Source of the DNA: Eledone cirrhosa
Taxonomy: Eukaryota
DNA: 64,000 bases
Reading direction: 5' to 3'
NCBI GenBank assembly: GCA_964016885.1
Contig: OZ024743.1
Location: forward strand, 344,286,001-344,350,000
Positions 5,283-51,002 of this stretch are shown here, one piece after another; position 1 is the stretch's first letter, and every line of letters begins with the position of its first letter. The notes beneath the pieces are model-generated. The model was not told where the DNA came from. It worked only from the letters and a program-made list of their open reading frames with translations, and searched no databases. The translations under genes and the position numbers were made by a program.

Positions 5283-5285
<3 letters not shown>

Positions 5286-5482
5286 ACGAAGGAGGTGTGG
5301 TAAGGAACCAGATGGACCATAACGCACCAGAGTACTCAATACTTAGGGTAGTAGAATGAGTAATAGGAAAATGTTTAACCCCGACGGCAGAGCTCAAGCA
5401 GTTTCGACTATTTCTGGACTCTGGGAGTTCCGGAAATAGCCGTCAAAACGGCTTGAGCTCTGCCGTCGGGGTTAAACATTTT

Positions 5483-5486
<4 letters not shown>
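5283..5486. mobile_element. Fold-back element, family C
   Basis: Arms about 5361-5421 and 5425-5486. The tail 5283-5360 is homologous to the reverse complement of 815-898. Inside (TA)n. Confidence 0.8.
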
Positions 5487-5538
<52 letters not shown>

Positions 5539-5542
<4 letters not shown>

Positions 5543-5728
5543 TATGTACACGTACATTATAATAAATGTTCGGTAAACCCATACGTACATATATATATGT
5601 GTGCATGTATGTATATATATACATACTACTGTACGTCTGTATACATATATGTATGTACGTATACATACATGCTTACATTTAAGTACCAGCCGTACTAAGA
5701 GTGAGAAATGAAATTTCATTTTTTCCAG

Positions 5729-5731
<3 letters not shown>
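5539..5731 (+). mobile_element. Family A 3' fragment with short inverted arm
   Basis: 5557-5731 is the reverse complement of about 14266-14450. 5539-5556 is a short opposite-orientation arm. (TA)n on both sides. Confidence 0.8.
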
Positions 5732-5779
<48 letters not shown>

Positions 5780-6307: not shown

Positions 6308-6339
6308 ATATATATATATTCGGTAAACGACTATCTCCT

Positions 6340-7850
6340 CTGATACAGCATTCACGAAAGGTTGTAACTGTAGAAACAAAGCAAATTGCCCATTAAAAGG
6401 AAATTGCCTTATTAATAACATAGTATATAAATGTAAAGTTAACACTAAGGACTCAACTTATTCATATATAGGAGCCACTTCTAACCAATTTAAAGTAAGA
6501 TTTAATACCCACAAACACAGTTTTAAAAATGCCGCATTAGCTTATACAACATCTTTAGCTGAAATAATTAATAATTATAGAAAGAGGAATATGGATTATA
6601 ACCTGACCTGGAGTGTGCTCAAAAGGGCCACCCCTTATCAAAATAATAGATATGAATGTAGATTATGTTCCCAGGAACTTTTTGAAATAATGAAATCTAA
6701 GGATATCCTATTAAATAAACGACAGGAATTAATTATATCATGTAATCATAAACTGAGAAGAACTTTTAAATATTATAAACCTAATTAATATACACTTTAG
6801 AAATTATTATAATAACACTTTTTTTAAATTAGTTAACCTATAATTAATATTCTACTACTAATGAACTGCATAATTTTATTTCCCTTTTACAGCTATCTTT
6901 TCCTAAAATTTATACCAATAAGTATACATATAAACTATTTTAATTTCAGGTTATGATTCTATGTTCCTTATAATCTATATAAATTTGTTATTTCTCACTA
7001 ATAAATTTACCCCCCCCCCCCATAATAATAATAATAATTATTTTTTTATTTTGCCTTCGTTTTTAACAGCACTCTGCAGTTACATCTAACTCTTATTTAT
7101 CATATCTATATGAATTTAATATAAATTTATCAATATAAATATATCTATCAATTTAATTAATTTATTTTCTTTTTATAGATGTAAACTCCCTATATTTTAA
7201 ATAAGATTGATATTTTTCACTAACACATTTATCGTAAAATTTTATTCTCCTTAGATATTTACATTAGCATTATTCTTTTATAACATCACTTCTTCGTGTA
7301 CCTTTTACCGACTTGACCTATTTTCATCCCTAAAATAATCTTTTCATTCATCATACTCTTTCCATTCAAAACTGAAATCTGCTTTCCTCTACCCCTAAAT
7401 TAAAGTTCTATTACTACTATTCTACCATCTTGACCACTCACTACCTTTCTATTGGTAAATTCAAAACGTGTTCCCAAACAGACCTATTATATTAAATCTT
7501 TGTTGGTTTTTTTCAATAAACAAATATCATTATTTCTGAAGACAGCATATATATGTGTAGGTATGTATATTCCCTCTGATAGTTTGTAAACATTTTACAT
7601 AGATCTATATGATATACATACCAACACAAACATATATATCCTAGAAACGATCGTAAAATGATGAATTTTTTAATATAAGGAACTGTTTCTTTGTTTTTAT
7701 TCATTATTTTTATTAATTTATCTTGACTCTGTTTTCCTGTATTTTTCATCTGAAAAAAAAATTTTTGAATACATCGCTTTTCATGATATTCGGATTACAT
7801 TGAGTTCTTCATACGGATTGGACACTACCGTACATTTTGGTAGATTTATC
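6340..7850 (+). mobile_element. 5'-truncated PLE: GIY-YIG C-terminus plus long AT-rich 3' region with HHR
   Basis: Translation GCNCRNKANCPLKGNCL..IVY..YIGAT..FKVRF, then CRLC..E..LLNKRQE..CNH (ORF ends 6788). HHR at 7527-7664. Ends at (TA)n near 7855. Confidence 0.85.
7527..7664 (+). ncRNA. Type I hammerhead ribozyme with about 100-nt extended stem II
   Basis: Layout TCATTATTT-CTGAAGA-[7543-7643]-GAAAC-GATC-GTA-AAATGATGA. Stem I is 9 bp, stem III is the palindrome ACGATCGT, stem II contains GGTATGTATAT/ATATACATACC and ATATATATG/CATATATAT. Confidence 0.8.
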
Positions 7851-8542: not shown

Positions 8543-8886
8543 ATAATAAAATAACAGGAAGCTGGACTTGTGTAAATCTTTGAAAGGTTTATTATACTAT
8601 GGTCATTTCAATGACCGTGTTCCGTATGAATCCGGTGATATCATCAGGTATTCGAAATATAATAAATGAATGTAACAGATAAAATCCATGGGGCTGAAAA
8701 TCATAGCTGAGGGCGACCGGCTAAAGTGGAAGATCTAGATGGTCGGTCGTCCTCAGGTCTATGATTTTCAGCCCCATGGATTTTATCTGTTACATTCATT
8801 TATTATATTTCGAATACCTGATGATATCACCGGATTAGTATAATAAACCTTTCAAGGATTTACACAAGTCCAGCCTCCTGTTATTT

Positions 8887-14150: not shown

Positions 14151-14233
<83 letters not shown>

Positions 14234-14239
14234 TAAAGC

Positions 14240-14270
<31 letters not shown>

Positions 14271-14540
14271 GGAAGAAATGAAACGAAATTTCATTTCTCA
14301 CTCTTAGTACGGCTGTTACTTAAATATAAGTATGTACACGTACATACATATATGTATACAGACGTACAGTAGTATGCATATACATATATATATACATACA
14401 TGCACACATATATACATGTACGTATGGATTCACCGAACATTTATTATAATGCTCGGTGTGTTTGTAAACAAACATCCCGAATTAAGCCGTACAGTGTTTA
14501 GCAACCATCGTTGCTCATTTGTTCAAAACTGACAAAGGAA

Positions 14541-14581
14541 TGCTGTACTAGTTTCAAGCTTATTAGCTATCGTCAGCAACG
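14541..14581 (-). ncRNA. Type I minimal hammerhead ribozyme
   Basis: Minus strand: CGTTG-CTGACGA-TAGCTAATAAGCTT-GAAAC-TA-GTA-CAGCA. Confidence 0.85.
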
Positions 14582-14860
14582 TATACCTTCCTGCCAGATG
14601 GTTGAACGTCTGAAAGTATATAATTTCCTTGTGCATATTAACGGCTGAGCAGCGTAATTTGCATATCGAGTGAGTTAATCGGCCGGGGTACCGAAAACGA
14701 TAAAAGGAAAAAATGAAACGAAATTTCGTTTCTCACTCTTATCGTTTTCGGTATCCCGGCCGATTAACTCACTCGATATGCAAATTAGGCTGCTCAGCCG
14801 TTAATATGCACAAGGAAAGTATATACTTTCAGACGTTCAACCATCTGGCAGGAAGGTATA

Positions 14861-14901
14861 CATTGCTGACGATAGCTAATAAGCTTGAAACTAGTACAGC
14901 G
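14861..14901 (+). ncRNA. Type I minimal hammerhead ribozyme
   Basis: CATTG-CTGACGA-TAGCTAATAAGCTT-GAAAC-TA-GTA-CAGCG. Stem III is the palindrome ACTAGT. Confidence 0.85.
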
Positions 14902-15119
14902 TTCCTTTGTCAGTGTTGAACAAATGAGCAACGATGGTTGCTAGACACTGTACGGCTTAATTCGGGATGTTTGTTTACAAACACACCGAGCATTATAATA
15001 AATGTTCGGTGAATCCATACGTACATGTATATATGTGTGCATGTATGTATATATATATATATGTATATGCATACTACTGTACGTCTGTATACATATATGT
15101 ATGTACGTATACATACTTA

Positions 15120-15155
<36 letters not shown>

Positions 15156-17437: not shown

Positions 17438-17940
<503 letters not shown>

Positions 17941-17955
17941 TAAACAGAGAATAAA

Positions 17956-18193
17956 TATAATAGTAAAAGGACGAATTGTTATGTCTTCATTACGCTTACT
18001 GAGTAGTGACGCGCGTTTCGTTATTGATCAGCTCAAGGTTATCTCATTATCACAGCAGAGGTCCGCCGAGCTTTTGATTCCAGAGTCGGGCCAGTTCGAT
18101 ACAGATCTAACCTTGAGCTGATGAATAGCGAAACGCGCGTCACTATTCAATAAAAGTAATGAAGGCATAACAATTCGCCCTTTTACTATTATA
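17956..18193. repeat. Fold-back insertion with an HHR motif in each arm
   Basis: Arms 17956-18041 and 18108-18193. Ends in (TA)n. Confidence 0.85.
18113..18150 (+). ncRNA. Minimal hammerhead motif (weak stem I)
   Basis: CTGATGA-ATAGC-GAAAC-GCGC-GTC. The inverted partner at about 18008-18031 has a CTGATCA variant. Confidence 0.65.
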
Positions 18194-27687: not shown

Positions 27688-28081
27688 TATGTATAGTATA
27701 TTTGGTAATATACTGTATGTTTAATTAAAAACATTTTGAAGACCTTGCGCTATAATTTTAAAGTACTGACTATGTCAATTACTCCTTTTTTCAACGAGGG
27801 AAGGGAGATAAGCTGACAGATCTGTTTCAAACTGTTGGTGTTCATCAGAGCTTAGCACTCGCCGACCTCTGCCGAAAATTATAGAGGCGGGATTCTTATA
27901 GAATTCCAGTAATAATCAGGAACTGATTATACATAGAGATTGCCGGTCCAGCAAAAATAAAAAATTAGGATAGGTGCTCTGAAAAAGCGATGTATACATG
28001 AATGTATGTATAGTATATTTGGTAATATACTGTATGTTTAATTAAAACATTTTGAAGACCTTGTGCTATTATTTTAAAGTA
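27684..28081 (-). mobile_element. Non-coding HHR element, family B: about 1.25 monomers of 317 nt
   Basis: The GTATAGTATATTTGGTAATATACTG...GAAGACCTTG block occurs at 27691 and 28008 with one HHR between. An opposite-orientation fragment lies at about 27166-27255. Confidence 0.82.
27809..27854 (-). ncRNA. Type I minimal hammerhead ribozyme
   Basis: Minus strand: TAAGCT-CTGATGA-ACACCAACAGTTT-GAAAC-AGATCT-GTC-AGCTTA. Perfect 6-bp stem I, palindromic stem III ACAGATCTGT, GUC triplet. Confidence 0.88.
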
Positions 28082-33572: not shown

Positions 33573-33993
33573 AACTATATATACATATATTTATGAAATC
33601 GTGTGTTGAAACAAATATTGTTATATTTGTGGAGGGTCATATTGTTATAATATTGCCAGAGATAATAATAAAACACACTGAACAGAATAGAATAACAACA
33701 ACCATACCCAAACACACAATACTGACCTAAGGGAAATATAAATATATACACAAGTACAATAACAACAAACACACATAAACACACACTAGTGGACAAAGAT
33801 AGAATACAAAAACACGTAGACTCAAAACGAACATACACACCAAACAGAAAACACACACGCAAACGCATGCGCAAACAGAGTAAAAAACAAGAAAAAAAAT
33901 ACAATAAAAATGGCTTAGACATTACAATACAACGGGATGAAACAATAGTACCACTGATGATGTCACTGATGTGTGACGAAAAAACTTTGATAG

Positions 33994-34054
<61 letters not shown>

Positions 34055-34807
34055 TCAGGTTATCAATAATGTAGTGATAATATATCGTTACGTTAGAAAT
34101 GAACAGCGTACGTGCAGGTTTGCTCAACGAGTATAAATTATATTCCGGAGAAATGTAGAAAGGATGAATATAAAATGAAAGTGCTTTTGTTAAAAAAGGA
34201 ATTTATTAGGTATTGACATATGTTTCTGTAACAGACCGAATACCTATGTATCGCTGCTTGCGTAATCATATAATGTTAGCAAGTATTCGATAGCAAATGT
34301 ATAATCAGTTGTCACTTCTTCAGAGATTTTGGATAAACTGGATAAAATCAGAAAAATTGAAGTATTTATATTAGTAAAAGAGGAAGGAACAGAGGGGATA
34401 GAATATGACAGATGGTAAAATAATTTACTGCTAAACAAGTATATAATGGGTTTTTAATGAGAATACCATGAGTAAATCTAAATAAGAATTTTGGGAGTGC
34501 CAATTTTAATCTCTACTTGACCAACTGGACAGTGGACAGGGCTGGTTATTTGGTGCAGTAGTATTAATTATAAGTGTCAATTGGGGAAGGGGGAGATTTC
34601 GATTGCTACTAAATAACATCAATGCTAGTAGTCAGCTGGTATTTGCACTAGGGAATTGAATCAAGAAATCAGAAATCTCATTAGAAATCTCATTTTATCT
34701 ATAGCAGTTTGTATTAAAAGGTAAATAATAGAAGAGTTGATAGAATTAAGACTAATAAAGAATGTTCATATCTATTTTGACAATCAAACGGGGATAGAGA
34801 CAGGCGT

Positions 34808-37135
34808 TCAATCCTGGTAGTATTTATAATATGAAAATGTAGATTTTAAGCGATGGTTACAGTATAACGATCGCTCTATTCTGTTATTTAATAAAATGTT
34901 TTTGGATTTCATAATACAAAATAATTCTACATTACATAATTTACAAAATTCCTGTCCATTGGAATATGGGGGGGGGGGGGGGGCAGTCGCTATTATATCC
35001 CATTTTAGGTGAAATTGTTGGTTATTTTCACGCAGCTGCCAAGCCTTGTCTGCGAGTGTTGTTACATAACGCTGGTTTTCATGTTTTATAGAATAACGAT
35101 GTCTATAAAGGCGTGATTTGAAGGAGGTGGCTGTAGATCCCACATAGTACCACTTCTGTCTATCCGATTCGATAGTACATTTGTATACGATGTTGCGTTC
35201 AAGACACTGATTGTTCAACGGACACATTCCTGGTTGGACACAGTTGCAATTACAGTTTTGCGTTGTTGTATTGCCATGGATGGGTTGATGAGGTTGCTTA
35301 TGTAGGACAGGATGTTGTTTGTTGTTTTGTGATGTTATAGCTAATGTTTTACGTGTATTGTTATGTGTTGGAAGGCGTTTATACAACCGTTTAGCGTTAA
35401 GCATTTTTATATGTTGTTCAATATTAGGGGCGGTTGAATATGAAAGTCGAATGGTGTTAGGGTTTAAGATTTTATTATATTTATGTGATGTTGGAAAGTG
35501 TTTTCTAACTAATCGAAAGAATTTTGAGGGTAGATTGGTTTTAATAGATTTGTTATAGACCGGGTTGTACCAGATATACTCCTTACATCGCCTTCTGTTT
35601 GGTGGTGTGCGACTATTATTGTGTCTATTGCGGTAGTGTATGTATGGTGGTGATTCTGTGCTATTTCTACTCCTATGTGATTTATTTTGGGTGTTTTGGT
35701 GATCATTGACTATATACTCTATATTATCTAGGTGACCGGCTTTCCTAAGTGCATCATCATAATACTCGGCATGTTCTTTGAAGGTTTGTTGGTCGGACGA
35801 TAGGCGGGAGATTCTAAGAGAAACATTTCAAGGGATGGATTTAATTATAGAGAGTGGATGGTTAGAACTCGTATTTACATATTTAAGGTTCTCATTTAGT
35901 TTATGGAACGGTTTAATCGTATCTGTATTGAGATTGAAAGTAACATCAAGGAAATTGACCTCTTTGAGGTTATATTCAAATGTAATATTTAATCCTAGTT
36001 CTTTAAAAAGTTTTCTGATATTTTTACGCATCCTTTCTAAATTCTGGTTATTCATATGCTTAACTAATAGGAGCGCATCGTCACGGTAAATTCCACCGTG
36101 GAGATCCTTGAATTTTCCTTGTAATCTGTGGGTGATATAAATTCCCACAAGATCTGTTACTTCCGCCGAATCATTTGAACCCATAGTGATATCAAAATTA
36201 GAAGGTCTATCTTTGCGAACCCAGTAGCTATCATCGAATTTAACTATAGTTTTTCTCGCTTCCATAATAATTTTAATTTCAGCATCCGTAAGGTCGGAAT
36301 TATCCTTAGCGAACGAAAGAGCTTCATGTAGAGTATCAGGTGAAATTGAGGAATAATATTCATCAATATCAAACTGAATAAATTTTGATTTTTTCTTATC
36401 AGTAATGTTGTTAAACCATCTTATTGCTTCATGAGTGTTACCCCATAGTTTAATCTCTACTTTAACCTTAACTTGGGGGATAATTCTGTCTAGTATATAT
36501 TTGCTAATTTTACCTATATCAGATTTAGATGGGCATATAAGTCTAATATTAGGGTTAGTATCGAAGTTTACCTTGTGGTCCTTCAGGTTGAAGGATGGTA
36601 TAGCTGGTGTTAAGGGTTGCGTTCTATCGTCAATACAAAGTTTTTTAACAATATCACATGGCGAGTTGTTGATGTTTTTAAGTGTGGCTTCATTAGTTTT
36701 CCTGTATTTTTTATGCAATTCCTTACGGATGAAGTTATTGTAAGTGTCCACATCCATGGTATATACGTTTGATGTTTTGTCTGCTCTAACAATAATTCCA
36801 TTGGCGTTTTTTAGATTATTGAGCAGTGCCGTGATGTCATTCTGTAGTTTATTGTTCTTACGTTTTGTAAATTTGATCTCCATGATCATATCCATTAGGT
36901 CTTGTTCAAATGCATCCAAAAGTGGGTTTGAGGGTGGGTTCTTGTAAGATTTAAATCCAAATTTATCCTTGTTAAGATCCGATGTTTGGTTTATACGGCT
37001 TTTGTCAAAATGGAATGTTTTCCATCTGATTCGTCGAATAAAATCATTGGTCCTTCGTATCATACCTAGAATATATTCCCTTTTTGCCTGAATAGGTATG
37101 TTTTTTAACGACATATCCAATTGGTGCCTTTCCAT
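34808..37135 (-). CDS. PLE RT/GIY-YIG polyprotein, about 775 codons, one in-frame TGA at 35830-35828
   Basis: RT part: SLKNIPI, ADKTSN, FDIDEYYSSI, FDITMGSNDSAEV, IYRDD, NFLDVTF, SNHP. Reading through the TGA continues open (IWYNP) in frame into CNC..CPL..C, IVY..YYVG.T..FK.R, CKLC..E, LLN..E..CNH. Confidence 0.9.
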
Positions 37136-37344
37136 TTTAGAAGCGTATGCTGAATTAGTTGCTCAACTGTATAGATAAATTCTTATTTAGATTTACTCAT
37201 GGTATTCTCATTAAAAACCCATTATATACTTGTTTAGCAGTAAATTATTTTACCATCTGTCATATTCTATCCCCTCTGTTCCTTCCTCTTTTACTAATAT
37301 AAATACTTCAATTTTTCTGATTTTATCCAGTTTATCCAAAATCT

Positions 37345-37461
37345 CTGAAGAAGTGACAACTGATTATACATTTGCTATCGAATACTTGCTAACATTATAT
37401 GATTACGCAAGCAGCGATACATAGGTATTCGGTCTGTTACAGAAACATATGTCAATACCTA
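37345..37461 (+). ncRNA. Hammerhead in PLE pLTR with about 90-nt stem II (identical copy at 34207-34323, minus)
   Basis: CTGAAGA-[GTGACA..TATCG..CTTGC..GCAAG..CGATA..TGTTAC]-GAAAC-ATAT-GTC. Canonical stem I is poor. Confidence 0.65.
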
Positions 37462-37507
37462 ATAAATTCCTTTTTTAACAAAAGCACTTTCATTTTATAT
37501 TCATCCT

Positions 37508-37580
<73 letters not shown>

Positions 37581-37835
37581 TATATATTTATATCTGTATT
37601 TTTAACCGTTGGTCAATCAATGATAAACATTGATTGCCAGATAAATTAACTATAGAGATATACAGAAGTGAAAACCAATCCAAACCAAACAGTGAGTGTG
37701 TTTTATTATTATTTCTGGCAATATTATAACAATATGACCCTCCCAAAATAACACTATATATATATAAGTTTAGGAATAACCAAAGAGTGCTTAGAAATAC
37801 ATTGTTATATTTGCTAACAGTGTTTCATCCTTACC

Positions 37836-39790
37836 CTATGGCCTGTGTTTGAAGGAGCTTTTGTGGTTATACAAGCGTTCTTTAAACGTAGTCGATGTCG
37901 CCCCTATGTAGGAGTACTCTTTTTGGCCCGCTGTGACATCGCACCGGTAAACAATATTTTTAACGAGGCACTCCCCGTTTAGTGGGCATTCGACCCGCCT
38001 TTTGCAGTTGCAGTTGGGGGTTATGTGTTTGTTGCTACGTTGTCGGTTGTACGTAATCTGTGTGGAGCTGGCATGTAGGTTGTTGTGTTGTGTTGTGTGT
38101 GTTGTTTCGTTCTGGGTTGTGCTAGTGGTTGGTTGTGGTGCTCCCATGTGTTTGCATATTTTTGTCCTATTTGCGTGTGCTATTGTGTCGCCTAGATTTG
38201 GTGTTGTGGAGAAAGAGAATTTGACAGTGTGTCTATTAAAGAGCTTGTGGTATTTATGTATGGGTGGGAAGGATTGGTCAAGAGCTCTGAAGAAGTTTCC
38301 CGGTATATTAGTGGCAACATGTATGGAGTACGGAGCGTTGTACCATGTCACGGATCTGCTTCGGGCTGTACGGTGCTTAGTGTGGTTGTTGTGGTTTAGT
38401 GGTTGCGTGGGTGTGTTTTGGTCAGGCGCATTTGTCATGGGGGCTTCTTGTTATTCTATTGTCGTTAAGTCTCGGGTCTCTATTACTAGGTCATCGTGTG
38501 CTATAATCAGAGTCCTTACTGGGGATGGAGAGTATAGCTTTATCTCCATGGCAGTTTTGTGTAACTCTGCCTGTCCTGCCGGCTAGAGATGGTCTTTGCT
38601 TAGTGTTTGTTCTAGGTGTGGTGTCCTCCTCTATATGGGTTTCTAAATGTCTGTTTGGGTTTAGCAGTGTTGTGATTCTAGTTTGGTTATTTTAATTTAT
38701 CTTCTCATTGTACCCAGCCTTTTCAAGTGCGGAGTTATAATATTCCGTGTGGTGGTTGAGGATAGTTCTGTTCGCCGACAGGTTTGACACTCTGTAGGAA
38801 ACGCTTTTAAATATTGAGTTAATTATGCTCCTAGGGTGGTTGGAGTGTCTGTTGACATATTTTAGGTTTCCGTTTACTTTATGGTATCGGTGGTAGAGAC
38901 CTGTGTCTAATTCTAATGTTTACTAAGAAGTTTACTGTCCTACTGTTGGGTTCTATTTCTACCGCTAATCATTGGGTCTTAAAGATATATCTAAGTCGTT
39001 TGTGTAGTCTATCTAATGGTCTATTATTGAGTCCGCGGGCCATGAGTAGGGCCTCGTCTCGGTAAAAGCCTCCACCCATGGTGGGGATCTCATCCGTTAT
39101 TATATTTAGGAGGTATAGGCCCATTACATCCGTAACCTGTGCGGAGTCACTAGACGCCATAGTAATGTCGAAGCTATTTGGTCTATTTTGTCATTCCCAT
39201 AATTTACTGTCAAATTCTAGTAAAGTTTTCCTAGCTACTAGTATGATGTCTACCTCCTTTCTGGTGGGCATGATCTGTTCATGGCTGAGATCAATGCCTT
39301 GTTTAGGATGACCGGGGATATAGAGGCGTAATAGTTCGCAATGTCCATTTGTACGAATCGGACGTCCGACTTGGTTTCAATGCCGGATAACCAGTCGATT
39401 ACCTCTTTTGTACAGGACCAGAGGCTGAGTTTAGTCCTATTTCTTAGTTCTGGCATTATCCGGTCAATGATGCACTAGCTTAGTCTACCTAGGTTTGATT
39501 TAGAGGGAGCTATGAGTCTGACCGGTATTTTGGACTGAAAGTCCGGTTTGTGGTCCTTAATCGATATCCTCGGTGTCCTAGGGTTGTATGGTTGTGTCCT
39601 GTCGTCTATGGTCAATTCCGTAATTATCATTTTTGCCTGTTTGTTTATGTGTGCTAGGTTTTACCGTGTTGATGTTTTGTATATTTTAGCTAGTTCGTTT
39701 GTGATGCATTTCTTGTAGGTTTTGTACTCCAAATTATAGATGTTTCCGATCTTATCCGCCGGTACAATGATGCCAGGGCTTTTCCCGACT
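37836..39790 (-). pseudogene. Second, decayed and truncated Naiad-like PLE ORF (RT and GIY-YIG)
   Basis: Fragments MDIANYYASI, MASSDSAQVTDVMG, FYRDEALL, WYNAPY, CNCKRRVECPLNGEC..IVY..YIGAT..FKERLYNH. Many frameshifts. (TA)n on both sides. Confidence 0.88.
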
Positions 39791-40052
39791 GTTCGGTGGA
39801 TGTGAGCTCAGACAGGTTTTGTACTCCAAATATATATATTGTTATCCTTTTGGAGGGTCATGCTGCCTATAAAAAAAAATACACACACCTGTTGGTTTTT
39901 ACTTCAATTTATTATAAATTTCTGACTGGTTGGTTCAATAATCGGAGGGTTGTTTTTATCTTGCCAATGCTCTTTCGTCCCACATTCTGGGATCTCCTCA
40001 GTGATTGGTTTATATTTTGTATCTCTTCTTCGTTCTGTCCTACACCATCTTG

Positions 40053-40135: not shown

Positions 40136-40287
40136 AAAAAGTATGGTCCCGACGGCAGAGCTTAAGCCGTTTCGCCGGCTATTTCTGGACTATTCATGGA
40201 CTTTTCCTATTTCCCACTCTACTACCCTAAGTATTTGGTACTCTGGTGCGTTATGGCCCATCTGGTTCCTTACCACAATTCCTTTGT

Positions 40288-40288
<1 letters not shown>
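40133..40288. mobile_element. Fold-back element, family C
   Basis: Minus-oriented motif 40133-40195 joined to a plus-oriented tail 40201-40288. Inside (TA)n. Confidence 0.8.
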
Positions 40289-40319
<31 letters not shown>

Positions 40320-45730: not shown

Positions 45731-48700
45731 CTACAGAACAATGTAGAGAGAAGGCCCATTTACACGGGCCATTCTCGCTTCTTTCACCCACCTTTCATAA
45801 AACTGTCTGGGACCAAGCACTTCTCTCTCCATCCTGATTCTTCTTCCGAAGTGGTATCGGAAGAAGTAAACCAGGTGATGGCCGGAGAGAAAGTCACCCG
45901 ACCTCAGACCTTTCAGGCGCGTCCACCACACAACCTCTTTCATCATGGCTATTACGCACAGAAAGACCGCCTCTGCTTCATTTCTGAAGGGAGGAGGCGG
46001 CTTGATGTTCACCACAGACTCGGCGGTTAATCGAATCGGCGCCACACGCGACAGCAGTCGTTCGACGTAGCCCCACAGATCGGCAACGCCCGGGCAGTGT
46101 ACCAGTGCATGCGCAACGGTTTCCTCGTCGCGCACGCATCTGGGACAGATCTTTTTCGCGGGATCCCTGCCCGGGCGCCCGTGTCTGTAGAGCTTTTCTC
46201 GAACGGGCAGAGCCCCCCGGTAACACTGCCAGGCTAGGGACCTCTGGAAGTTGTCCATGGGTCCCGGGCCGAAAGTTCTACCGAACAGGCTGGCCAGTTC
46301 GTCCTCCTCCATGCCTAGCGACTCTCCAAGGGTGTCGTCGCCCCTGCTAGCCACCAACCCTCTATAGAATGTCGAGGTGGATTCTCCACTGACAGTCGGG
46401 TCCGCTTGCCAGATAGCCGTGAGCGCCTGGGCACACTCAGTGTGCCAGTTGCCCAGTTTTCTCGGTCTTTGCTTCACCCAGGATTGCAGTTCGGTGAGCG
46501 AGACGAGCTGTGGGAAGGCTCGCCTCACAAACGGGGCCCACACCGGCTGACCGTTGAGGAATACCTGTAGATGCCGTAGCCTCAATGCGTGCCTACGCAT
46601 CAACAGCCACGGCATACCCAGCCCTCCTTTCGAAGGGTGCTGGCAGCAGATGGATCTCCTCACCATGGGAGGCCGCTTCTTCCAGAGGAACTGGAAGAGC
46701 ATGCGTTCCATGATGGTGAGCTTTTCCTTGGGGCAAGGCACGACGGTCAGGCGGTAGTAGATGACGGACGCTATGTAAGCGTTCGTCACCTCCGCCCGAC
46801 CTTTCAGTGATAGTTTGCACTTGGCCCACTTCTGGGTCAGCGCAAACACCCTGCTCGTCACCTCGCCCCAATTCTTCTCCACCTGGAGGTCCGGTCCGAA
46901 CCAGACCCCGAGCAGCTTCACCGGGCCCTCCGTCCACCGCCCGACGACACCGTCTAACGGCATCGGTTTGCCCCTCCACGTTCCGAGTTGCAAACCGACT
47001 GACTTGTCCTGGTTCAGCTTAGCCCCCGTCAGCCTTTCGTATTCCTCCAGTAGGGTGGCGATCGCCCCGATTTCCGAGGCGTCCGCCACCATTACTGTTA
47101 CGTCGTCGGCATAGGCCGAGACCGCTTTGTGCAATCCCGGTTCCAGGGGTATGCCCCGCAGCAACTCCAACTTCCGCAGCAGTGGCTCGAGAGTCAATAC
47201 GTACAGAAGGGAGGAGAGGGGGCACCCCTGTCTGATGGATCGGGTGATTTGAAACGGCTCCGAGAGGTAGCCGTTTACTTTAATCCTAGAGTAGATGTTG
47301 CCACTGTGCATGGCAGAAATCCAGCCCCTGAAAACGGGTCCGAAGCCCGCCGCCGCTAGCACCGCATCCAGGTAACCATGGTCGACCCTATCGAACGCCT
47401 TAGATTGATCCAAGTTGATCAGGGCCCCACCAAAGCCGGGTTCGTAGCCAACCCTCTCTATGATGTATCGCATGAGGTGGAGGTTGTCGTGAATGGACCT
47501 GGACGGGATAGCGCATGTCTGCGCGTCTCCCACCAAACCACCCACCACAAGCACCAACCTCTTCGCCAACACCTTGGCCAAAATCTGTAACTCTGCATTC
47601 AGCAGAGTTATGGGCCTAAAGTTACTTAAGTCGTCCCCCTTGCTCTCGTCCTTCCTCACTAGCGTGACCACGCCCTTGGTCACAGAACAGGGAATTCTCC
47701 CGTTCTGTTGCCAGTTGCAATAGACAGCCTCGAGGAGTTCGGAGAACAAGACCGGCATAGCTAAATAAAGTTCGTATGGTAGACCATCGAGACCCGGGGA
47801 TTTGCGTCTGCTGCATTGGCTGAGCGCTTCCCCGATTTCAGTGGCTGTGATTGGCCCTTCGCAGCACTCCGCTTCGCCGCTCGAAAGACGCGGTAGACCG
47901 TCGAGGTATGGACCGAAGTCCACATCCCCGTCCGGCCCCCCGCCACCTCCGAACAGTCGAGCAAAGTGCCTTTGAAAGGTCTCGCACATTCGCTCAGGTT
48001 CAAGGATCACCCGTCCATCCTGGTCTCGCAAAGACCGAATGGTGGATTTAATCCCACTCTTGGCTTCTGTCACGCGGGCCCAGCTAACAGCTTTGGTCCC
48101 CTCGTTTCCTAAAGCACGTATTTTACTTCGGACAACGCAGCCTTCGTGCTTCGCGTCAAAGAACTGGCTCAATGCCGTTCTCGTCGCTAACACTCTGGCT
48201 ACGTCTCCGCTCCTAATCGCCTCTTCTAGTTTATCTGTTAACTCCCTTTCCCTCCTATTTCTATTCGCCGCTAGTTCCTTACTGTAACCTATCGAACTTA
48301 CTCTAATCTCTCTCTTTAGAGATATCCACCACCTACTGTTGACGATCGCTCCCGTCAACCGCATCTTAACTAAGCTACTAATCCGGTTTCTGTAATCTTT
48401 CTTTGTCGGTAAGGACAAGTTCATCTTCCAGTAACCGGGACCCTGTCTATGCGTTCTATCAAGGTTGACCACGCAGGTCACTAATTTGTGATCTGAATAG
48501 CCAACCATGATCAGTTCTGGACAACTAAATACGTCCCTATCCTTACTCCTAACCAAAAACCTATCTAGGTACGATCTAGATTGTCCACTGCGGTTTGCCC
48601 AGGTCCAGGTTGGCGCAGTTGGACAATCTAGTCGAAATCTATCGACCAGGTCGAATCGATCGAGTAACCCCTTGAGGCTGCTACACCCCCCTCTATCGGG

Positions 48701-49169
48701 ACATGCCCCTGCATAGTCCCAACGCGCATCTAGGATTCCATTCCAGTCCCCCACTAAAAGCAGGGAACGCGACGTTCCTAGAAAAGTCTCCAGACGTTGG
48801 AAGAAGTCGGCTCTTTCCGCCCCGAAGGGAGCATAAAGACCGACCAGTCTGAAAGCCCCGCCTTCACCACCTCCGACGTCCAGCACCAGTAATCGACCCC
48901 CCGGGTCCGAGTGAACAATCTGTACGTCGAGAGTCAGACGTTTATCCAGCAGTACGGCAACTCCCCCCCCCGCCTCCGGGTTGACAGAGAGATGCGTGCA
49001 TCTCAAAGTCATCGAAGGCGGGCGCCAGCTGTCTCACGCTGCTGATCCGACTCTCGCAAACAACCATCACATCTATACTTTGTGACCTGAGGTCACTTAG
49101 AAGCTTTGCTTGCTTCCAAGCTGAGCTCAGGCCACGCGCGTTCAAACAGCCAACTCTCAATTGATCTAT
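45731..49169 (-). CDS. LINE ORF2: APE endonuclease, reverse transcriptase, C-terminal Zn finger (one frameshift near 48963-48971)
   Basis: APE motifs: VGCLNARGL (ORF 48942-49160), GDWN, YLDRF, SDH. RT motifs: KSPGLDG, FRPITLLN, LDQSKAFDRV, RQGCPLS, YADD. C-terminal CPRC..ET..HAL..C. The N-terminal piece joins the 1093-aa ORF across a C9 run. Confidence 0.92.
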
Positions 49170-51002
49170 TTTGGTGTTGAAAGTGAAGAAAGAAAAGCAC
49201 TTACCTCTCCGGGTTGCGTAATTTCCATGGCATCAGGTGTGTTGGGTGGAGGGATGTTTTGTGGTGGTGTGGGGGTACACGTGTGTGGTGGGGTTGGGGT
49301 ATTTGGAGTTGTGTCAGGGAGAGGGGCGGTTATGGGGAAATCTTTCAAGAGGACGCGATTCAACGGTTTTAAACAGGGGGGGCTCACGTCCCGTCTAAAT
49401 TGTTCTTTTAAGGAACGATAAAGGTCCAGAGGGACCTTTATCATTTTTAAATGGGTGAAGTTCTCTGTTGAGATAAAGTTTGGCCCTTCGGTCTGCACCA
49501 TAGGGTTATTGTTTATTAATTTAACCAGTTTTTTGTTTTCTTTATTTATATATGTGTATTGCAACGTCTTTTTTTGTGATGCTGTCAATGTTTCGGAGAG
49601 GGGAGGCGCAGATTTATTTTTGTTTGTTGAGGGTGGGGTGTTTTTGATTGGAGTTGGTGTTTGTGTGTGGGTTATTTGTGGTGTGCTGGGTGTGTGTTTT
49701 CTTTTTTTTCTTTTAACTTGTCTGAAGGCTTCTCCTCCTTCTTCTTCAGAAGTTGGGGGAAACTCTTCAGCGCTAGGTGGGAGGGACGTGTTGTGTGGTT
49801 GTTTTTTTTTTGCGGGAGGGGTAGATTTGTTACTGTTTTTTTTATTATTTGTTTGGAATGGGTTTTGTGGTGGTGGTGGTGGTAATGTTTGTGTCGTGCT
49901 TGTGGTTGGTGATGGTGGTGGTGATGTTTGTGTTGTGGTTGGTGGTGGTGATTTTTGTGTCGTGCTTGTGTTTGGTGCTGGTGGTGGTGATGTTTGTGTT
50001 GTGTTTGTGGTTGGTGGTGTCTGTATTTTGTTTGCTGTGTGTGGTATTAGTGTATTTTTGGAGGTGGGTGGTGCTGGTGTACTGTTTGTGGTGGGTGTGG
50101 GCAATAGTCCTTTTTGGGGGATACGTTTCGGGCAGTTAGCCTTAACGTGTCCCCTTTCCATGCATAAATAGCATGCTGGTCTTCTCCCCTCTACAATTAT
50201 GTCTATTGGGGTAAGGTCATCCAGCCAGATGCGATCCGGGATTTGTGCTATTCTTTCGGGCCTCATTTGGACTAGTATGTCGAGGCCCATTCCCAGGAAT
50301 GCATCTCCAGTTGCCTTCCCCATTGACAGCATAGTGTCTTCGCCCATATCAATGAAGCCAGCAATAGCCCACCAGAAGTCCATTGTGGGCAGCATTGTTT
50401 TTACTTTTATTCTCTGTGTTCTTCTACCCATGTAGGAGGGATAGAAGCTATATGTTGTCGACGAGAGTGGGCTTAGGGAAAGCTGAACCGCCGTTTCTTT
50501 GTCTCTTGTTAGGACCGAAATGCTGCCATAGAGTCGGTCCTTTCGTATGAAGAGAATATTCTTCATATAGTCTTTTAGGACTAACTCTATTTCCATTTGG
50601 CTGGGCTGTGCTGGCTTTCTTGACTGGTTTAGTATAGTTCTGTATATAACTGTGTTTTCTGCTCTGGCTTTCTTGAATTCTGGGGGGGGAGTTAATGGAA
50701 AACATTCCGTTCTCCCCCAAAACAATATGTTTCTTTGCTTCGGCCAGTTTTTCTCTGGCGGCAGTTAGGTCAATTGGTGTGTATGTAATGGATTGCTTTG
50801 TTTTCTGGGCGAAAGTTGCCCTGTCGTTATTTGTATTATTTTCTGTTTGTTTGTTTTCTGTTTGCTCATTTTCCTTAACATTTGTTTTTTCATTTTGTTT
50901 GTTTGTTTCAATGTCTAATTTTGTTGTAATTATTTTTTGTTCTTCAGACTTGGGGGGCGTGGCAGAGCTAATGGCAGACATGTCTGCCATCTTTTCCGCC
51001 AT
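49166..51002 (-). CDS. LINE ORF1, gag-like CCHC zinc-knuckle protein with Pro/Thr-rich tail (one frameshift near 50682-50689)
   Basis: CYLCMERGHVKANC fits CX2CX4HX4C. ORFs 50448-51029 and 49166-50725 join across a G8 run. Likely start MAEKMAD at 51002. Confidence 0.85.

Follow-up and report, generated by a model that had tools for sequence, protein, structure and literature searches.

An ORF-less hammerhead tandem repeat in the genome of Eledone cirrhosa: a probable non-LTR retrozyme with Penelope-type insertion anatomy

The window analysed here, a stretch of 64,000 nt from Eledone cirrhosa (assembly GCA_964016885.1, contig OZ024743.1, forward-strand positions 344,286,001 to 344,350,000), contains at positions 14266-15125 a single insertion in a (TA)n tract, consisting of two inverted arms of an ORF-less repeat, hereafter family A (Table 1). 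Its first 41 nt (14266-14306) recur at 14701-14741 with 38 of 41 positions identical at an offset of 435 nt, the remaining offsets being at background level, and the inverted arm (14742-15125) is about 95% identical to 14321-14702; the recurrence and the inverted copy had both been pointed out in an initial annotation of the window. The same annotation recognised one complete type I hammerhead core, and the core itself (CTGACGA..GAAA-CTAG-TA) is indeed complete, but it occurs twice, once per arm, at 14576-14546 (minus) and 14866-14896 (plus), and the ribozyme strand runs opposite to the direction described there. In each arm the ribozyme strand points outward, its RNA 3' end being the outer end that adjoins (TA)n (position 14266 for arm 1). 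The arms are joined through a 3-nt microhomology at 14739-14741, and the 5'-inverted integration previously envisaged is supported. A search with Rfam models returned no hammerhead match. The longest ORF on either strand of the circular monomer comprises 66 aa, as expected of a unit described as ORF-less. Both further copies listed for the window were recovered; the single-arm copy is 88% identical and has a GUU triplet, the short two-arm copy proved to lack a hammerhead, and all three insertions adjoin (TA)n.

Table 1. Features of family A in the window (window positions; E1 and E2 are the two fixed 3' sites described in the text).
Feature	Positions	Strand	Remarks
Arm 1, 476 nt	14266..14741	- (RNA sense)	3' end at E2, the distal priming site, followed by (TA)n; 5' truncation at inversion
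Penelope-type tail, 55 nt	14266..14320	-	between fixed 3' sites E1 and E2; contains hairpin
41 nt of previous tandem unit	14701..14741	-	terminal redundancy of the initial annotation; varies between copies
Type I hammerhead	14524..14600	-	stem I extended and bulged, stem II short, stem III palindromic; core 14576-14546; cleavage predicted after 14546
Octamer ATGCAAAT	14657..14664	-	conserved with sister family
Arm 2, inverted copy without tail	14739..15125	+	3' end at E1, the proximal site, followed by (TA)n; shares a 3-nt microhomology with arm 1
Second hammerhead	14842..14918	+	core 14866-14896; predicted cut after 14896
(TA)n target, left	14152..14267
(TA)n target, right	15126..15152
Older single-arm copy	17545..17936	-	E1 end into (TA)n; hammerhead core 17793-17763
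Short two-arm copy without hammerhead	5539..5732	+	tailed plus arm 5555-5732, short inverted arm 5539-5556

The 31-nt core has 10,046 exact matches in the 3.0-Gb genome (control, 0), and 400 kb sampled without regard to the family contained one clear further insertion. Units measure 412-464 nt (median 428; 36 distinct units), have a GC content of 0.37 and form pure head-to-tail arrays of up to ~25 units; the monomer had been called rather long, a description that does not hold against the 350-390 nt of mussel retrozymes (PMC7229834) and the published range of 51-972 nt (bioRxiv 10.64898/2026.07.22.740005). Insertion ends were compared in two sets of loci, namely 80 loci drawn from the first exact core matches along contig C1, where weak matches (<78% identity or <40 nt) and arms cut by the locus edge were dropped, and a further 54 loci, some of them selected for their E2 end. 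In the first set, 104 of 121 arms end at two fixed 3' sites lying 55 nt apart (E1, 50 arms; E2, 54 arms), and 85 of these 104 continue into (TA)n, which upholds the targeting suggested for the window copies; in the second set, 83 of 97 arms stop at one of these two sites. Where both ends of an inverted pair are canonical, E1 is combined with E2 in 23/23 cases of the first set and 16/20 of the second (39/43 in total), while the other four second-set pairs use the same site twice (two clean, two nested or complex). The 5' ends, by contrast with the fixed 3' sites, are scattered across the whole unit, and 62 of 121 first-set arms exceed one unit in length. Because of this scatter, the 41-nt redundancy is particular to arm 1 and reflects a chance truncation just upstream of the tail; the repeat itself is real, but it is not a fixed terminal repeat, being accounted for by part of the 55-nt tail together with that truncation. 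A pile-up of 5' ends at the ribozyme cut was considered and rejected (1/121, 0/97 and 1/90 arms versus ~2.5% expected by chance), in samples that under-represent arms stopping at the cut, most of their loci having been selected by an intact core or by the upstream half.

Several features together point to an RNA intermediate: 3' ends are fixed and 5' ends scattered, the tail is confined to one side, insertions target (TA)n, and one A>G cluster is strand-specific (see below). The same features make it very improbable that family A is a DNA-level satellite or fold-back element spread by recombination with its hammerhead as a relic, a reading that can draw on the local duplications present inside arrays.

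The hammerhead is not merely of the minimal PLE type (PLE, Penelope-type element) assumed earlier, since its extended bulged stem I resembles that of retrozyme motifs; stem III is a short palindrome, and short-stem-III motifs are described as cleaving better as dimers (PMC6155905). A sister family, A2/A3, is collinear with A and has units of 465-468 nt in which the core is kept and the stems are rewritten; the exact A2 core has 2,600 matches, and a degenerate pattern returning mostly A3 has 5,590. Among ten natural variants, 11 of 22 stem pairs are changed on both sides, and 90.5% of cells pair in the hammerhead alignment versus at most 43% when it is slid; with related alignment rows and a structure largely derived from the same alignment, these figures are to be taken as support, and not as a probability, for stems apparently kept by compensatory changes between the two families. 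The circular monomer folds with a z-score of -7.0 for A (25 shuffles) and -9.8 for the sister family, better on the ribozyme strand, and in the predicted circular fold the extended bulged stem I closes the cut ends. Inverted pairs of A2/A3 with two canonical ends are all of the E1+E2 type (15/15 and 16/16; 31/31), the tail is ~70 nt long, and the arms reach 5-17 kb on one or both sides of young insertions. Very young A2/A3 insertions with inverted arrays of 9-19 kb lie at L361-L362, L365-L366, L400-L401 and L405-L406. The octamer ATGCAAAT is conserved between A and A2, and an snRNA-type promoter, an idea known from newt satellite 2, was considered and rejected: five host U2 upstream regions are without the octamer within 320 nt, and no convincing PSE match was found. 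Host U2 snRNA genes occur in tandem clusters (L221-L250).

The genome harbours many PLEs, intact Hydra- and Neptune-type ORFs among them. A Hydra-type PLE at window positions 34040-37510 encodes a reverse transcriptase (RT) with a C-terminal GIY-YIG domain (RWK, DKT and CxCx5C motifs; one stop) and has an inverted 5' arm, a 113-nt tail and the same two-end layout as family A; its relatives elsewhere in the genome include many near-identical intact 781-aa open frames, and the 3' region of the window element yielded no canonical hammerhead core. Several families of Neptune or Poseidon type were detected through GIY-YIG, clade names being given by motifs and not by a tree, and the named relatives of a resident PLE are bivalve proteins. 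Four Neptune-type PLEs (L142, L152, L157 and L159) show degenerate hammerhead-like cores and a tail likewise on one arm only. The window also contains a second, decayed Hydra-type PLE at ~37800-39800 and an endonuclease fragment at 6327-6788.

Compared with five sampled PLE families, the ends of family A show no resemblance above shuffles, and a likeness of its 3' end to Neptune ends, drawn by eye, was discarded on the same comparison. The initial annotation had held that copies running into an RT ORF would reduce the unit to a pseudo-LTR; among 215 family A 5' flanks none joins a PLE ORF. Six of these flanks carry a PLE C-terminus at a distance of at least 565 nt, with (TA)n or another element in between in the four that were read, and of 221 tails followed by an unusual base 30 were examined as well, none of them continuing into an ORF. 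These flanks and tails, together with the pure arrays of up to ~25 units, speak against the unit being the pseudo-LTR of an autonomous PLE outside the sampled ones, which we regard as unlikely, even though the sampled candidates are a small part of the whole (the best 135 of 38,930 RT and the best 150 of 10,596 GIY-YIG candidates were scored, and 50 GIY-YIG loci read) and 24 of 57 Xenopus retrozyme families are stated to match known transposable elements, nearly all at PLE termini (bioRxiv 10.64898/2026.07.22.740005). One candidate for an autonomous parent, L057 (G000:C1:18488155-18491185), was rejected: it is a family A dimer inserted antisense in a Hydra ORF with a 9-nt duplication, and later copied again with the host element.

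With partial tandems, an inverted 5'-truncated arm, a one-sided tail and an AT-rich target, the insertions have the anatomy of PLEs, for which tandem or inverted insertions with a one-sided tail are described (PMC8557442). Mobilisation of Penelope type, as already supposed in the initial annotation, is likely on this anatomy and not on sequence similarity. Endonuclease-bearing PLEs such as Hydra, Neptune and Anolis Poseidon (PAc) are described with partial tandems, an inverted 5'-truncated copy, a one-sided tail that goes back to two RT start sites, targets that are AT-rich or (TA)n, and a hammerhead (PMC8557442, PMC11167929); family A differs in lacking an RT-endonuclease ORF and in a tail of 55 nt (sister, ~70), compared with the 30-40 nt usually cited. 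In vitro, PAc is reported to show no strand difference in start site (PMC11167929), whereas the genomic pairs analysed here use one site per arm. Other ORF-less head-to-tail insertions, presumed to rely on borrowed PLE enzymes, have been described as non-autonomous PLE derivatives (Li et al., 2026, bioRxiv 10.64898/2026.07.22.740005; Chlamys elements such as MRC1, PMC8557442), and in these, terminal sequence is often held in common with an autonomous family; for family A no such partner was found among the five sampled.

Judged by its sequence, family A also conforms to the definition of non-LTR retrozymes, having short tandem units with neither LTR nor ORF, each containing a single type I hammerhead whose core and stems are intact, and a monomer that is low in GC (0.37) and highly self-paired (z -7.0). 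The metazoan non-LTR retrozymes of mussel, coral and axolotl are likewise described as tandem units that are non-coding and low in GC, each with one type I hammerhead, a short palindromic stem III, high self-pairing, thousands of copies and co-existing PLEs (PMC7229834). The unit of family A is slightly above the 170-400 nt stated there; the passages of that paper on these elements do not describe insertions with two fixed ends and inverted arms in (TA)n, and it demonstrates circles and cleavage for the mussel, coral and axolotl elements, whereas family A is known here from the genome assembly. Taken together, the insertion at 14266-15125 belongs, with a probability of about 0.8, to a high-copy ORF-less hammerhead tandem repeat, a non-LTR retrozyme likely mobilised in trans by the RT-endonuclease of a PLE of the same genome. 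Family A is thereby an example of a described class, whether named non-LTR retrozyme or non-autonomous PLE, and a 2026 preprint argues that animal retrozymes are non-autonomous PLE derivatives (bioRxiv 10.64898/2026.07.22.740005). A literature search in which subscription journals were thinly covered found no report of a cephalopod hammerhead repeat, nor of inherited A-to-I edits in retroelements. The value of the family lies in its use as a test system for the inverted, tailed insertion of PLEs and for retrozyme movement through circles, the genome combining a very young sister family of thousands of units, a near-strict rule of one site per arm, kilobase-long arms and intact candidate RTs.

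The anatomy suggests the following course of insertion. Tandem copies would be transcribed, and a PLE protein would nick both strands of a (TA)n tract; reverse transcription would then be primed by one strand at E1 and by the other at E2, which lies 55 nt further downstream, a single RNA molecule probably serving both, consistent with the description of the PLE tail as the distance between two RT start sites (PMC11167929). Both cDNAs would pass ribozyme sites and unit junctions before stopping at random, the template being uncut at the ribozyme site while copied, and their joining by microhomology would leave two inverted arms with a tail on one side.

As to that template, a self-cleaved and re-ligated circle is slightly likelier than a linear multimer left uncut, and either kind may be in use. 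Circles have been demonstrated for the retrozymes of mussel, coral and axolotl (PMC7229834). Two young A2/A3 insertions without substitutions over 19 and 25 full units in both arms (columns near gaps masked) fit rolling-circle copying; their haplotype is, however, shared with five more loci (69 units at 7 loci in all), so that uniform arrays could also seed linear multimers. The competing account, in which a non-autonomous PLE is copied only from uncut linear multimers, the hammerhead being inherited and circles irrelevant, is the less probable one, short of an even chance. It gains from such uniform source arrays, from the heterogeneity of other arrays, in which some arms combine alleles of different subfamilies or have patterns of period 2 or 3, which count against a monomer circle as sole template, and from the retroposition of the core-dead copy L164 (see below). 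In vitro work on PLEs is also in its favour, since hammerhead mutants are reported not to block insertion and uncut RNA to be the main substrate of an Anolis PLE (PMC11167929); in Xenopus, 8 of 9 retrozyme dimers were without in vitro cleavage (bioRxiv 10.64898/2026.07.22.740005). What weighs against exclusively linear templates is the maintenance of the stems by compensatory changes between families, the 5-17 kb arms of young insertions, given that 5' truncation should shorten linear lineages, and insertion L396, in which two consecutive tandem units of one arm share variants found nowhere else in the assembly, although this variant cluster is partly compensatory and may mark a rare subfamily.

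The A>G cluster invoked above lies in L164 (675-1527 of G000:C1:83456479-83459506), a family A insertion in which an ADAR-like cluster extends across the hammerhead and is common to both arms. In the arm covering a 74-nt hammerhead stretch, 10 of 24 adenosines read G on the RNA strand; compared with a copy of the same subfamily, the other arm shows eight differences, all of them A>G and all common to both arms; apart from these changes, the two arms differ at 7 of 253 sites. The genome has two exact matches to this haplotype, one in each arm, and its hammerhead core is broken, yet the copy was retroposed. Clustered A>G changes are a signature of ADAR hyper-editing, which is described as favouring inverted-repeat duplexes and as strongest in octopus and frog (PMC5625713). 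It is likely that one edited RNA was copied into both arms, while gene conversion between the arms, or a source locus that carries the edits and escaped the exact search, could also account for the shared changes. On the likelier reading, L164 links its two arms to a single RNA sequence and hints that A-to-I edits may be inherited once an edited RNA has been retroposed; a precedent is provided by avian retroviral copies with A-to-G hypermutation.

Such A>G clusters are rare, being present in one insertion out of 134 in family A and in one out of 73 in A2/A3. T>C clusters were absent, and single units yielded one G>A and one G>T cluster. Among variants shared by all units of an insertion, A>G outnumbers T>C in family A (16 versus 3, 7 of the 16 coming from L164) and in A2/A3 (21 versus 15), as it does among lineage-level variants of family A (16 versus 5); the bias did not repeat in a fresh A2/A3 set (4 versus 5), and a family-wide A>G bias, being mixed and not cleanly replicated, was rejected. 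A triple A>G change first thought private belongs to the small lineage of 69 units at 7 loci. That one circular retrozyme RNA, at times subject to ADAR hyper-editing, serves a PLE RT as rolling-circle template for both arms, with priming at two sites, is a tentative proposal, to which we give a little less than even odds; if true, RNA edits would be written into the germline genome and could found new lineages, and they would record both a circular template and a PLE mechanism with one RNA and two cDNAs.

Other hammerhead or hammerhead-like motifs occur in short TA-flanked repeats of the window (17960-18190, 27825-27848, 8606-8647, 33954-33981 and 39973-40001), and at least eight further hammerhead families are present in the fetched loci, among them L080, a tandem of 310 nt whose arms are inverted. 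Also frequent is a short repeat flanked by TA (5283-5485, 40166-40290 and ~640-800), which has fold-back ends, lacks a hammerhead core and may be another non-autonomous PLE. Finally, the minus strand of the window carries at 45731-50764 a two-ORF LINE-like element with an open endonuclease-RT frame of 1100 aa.
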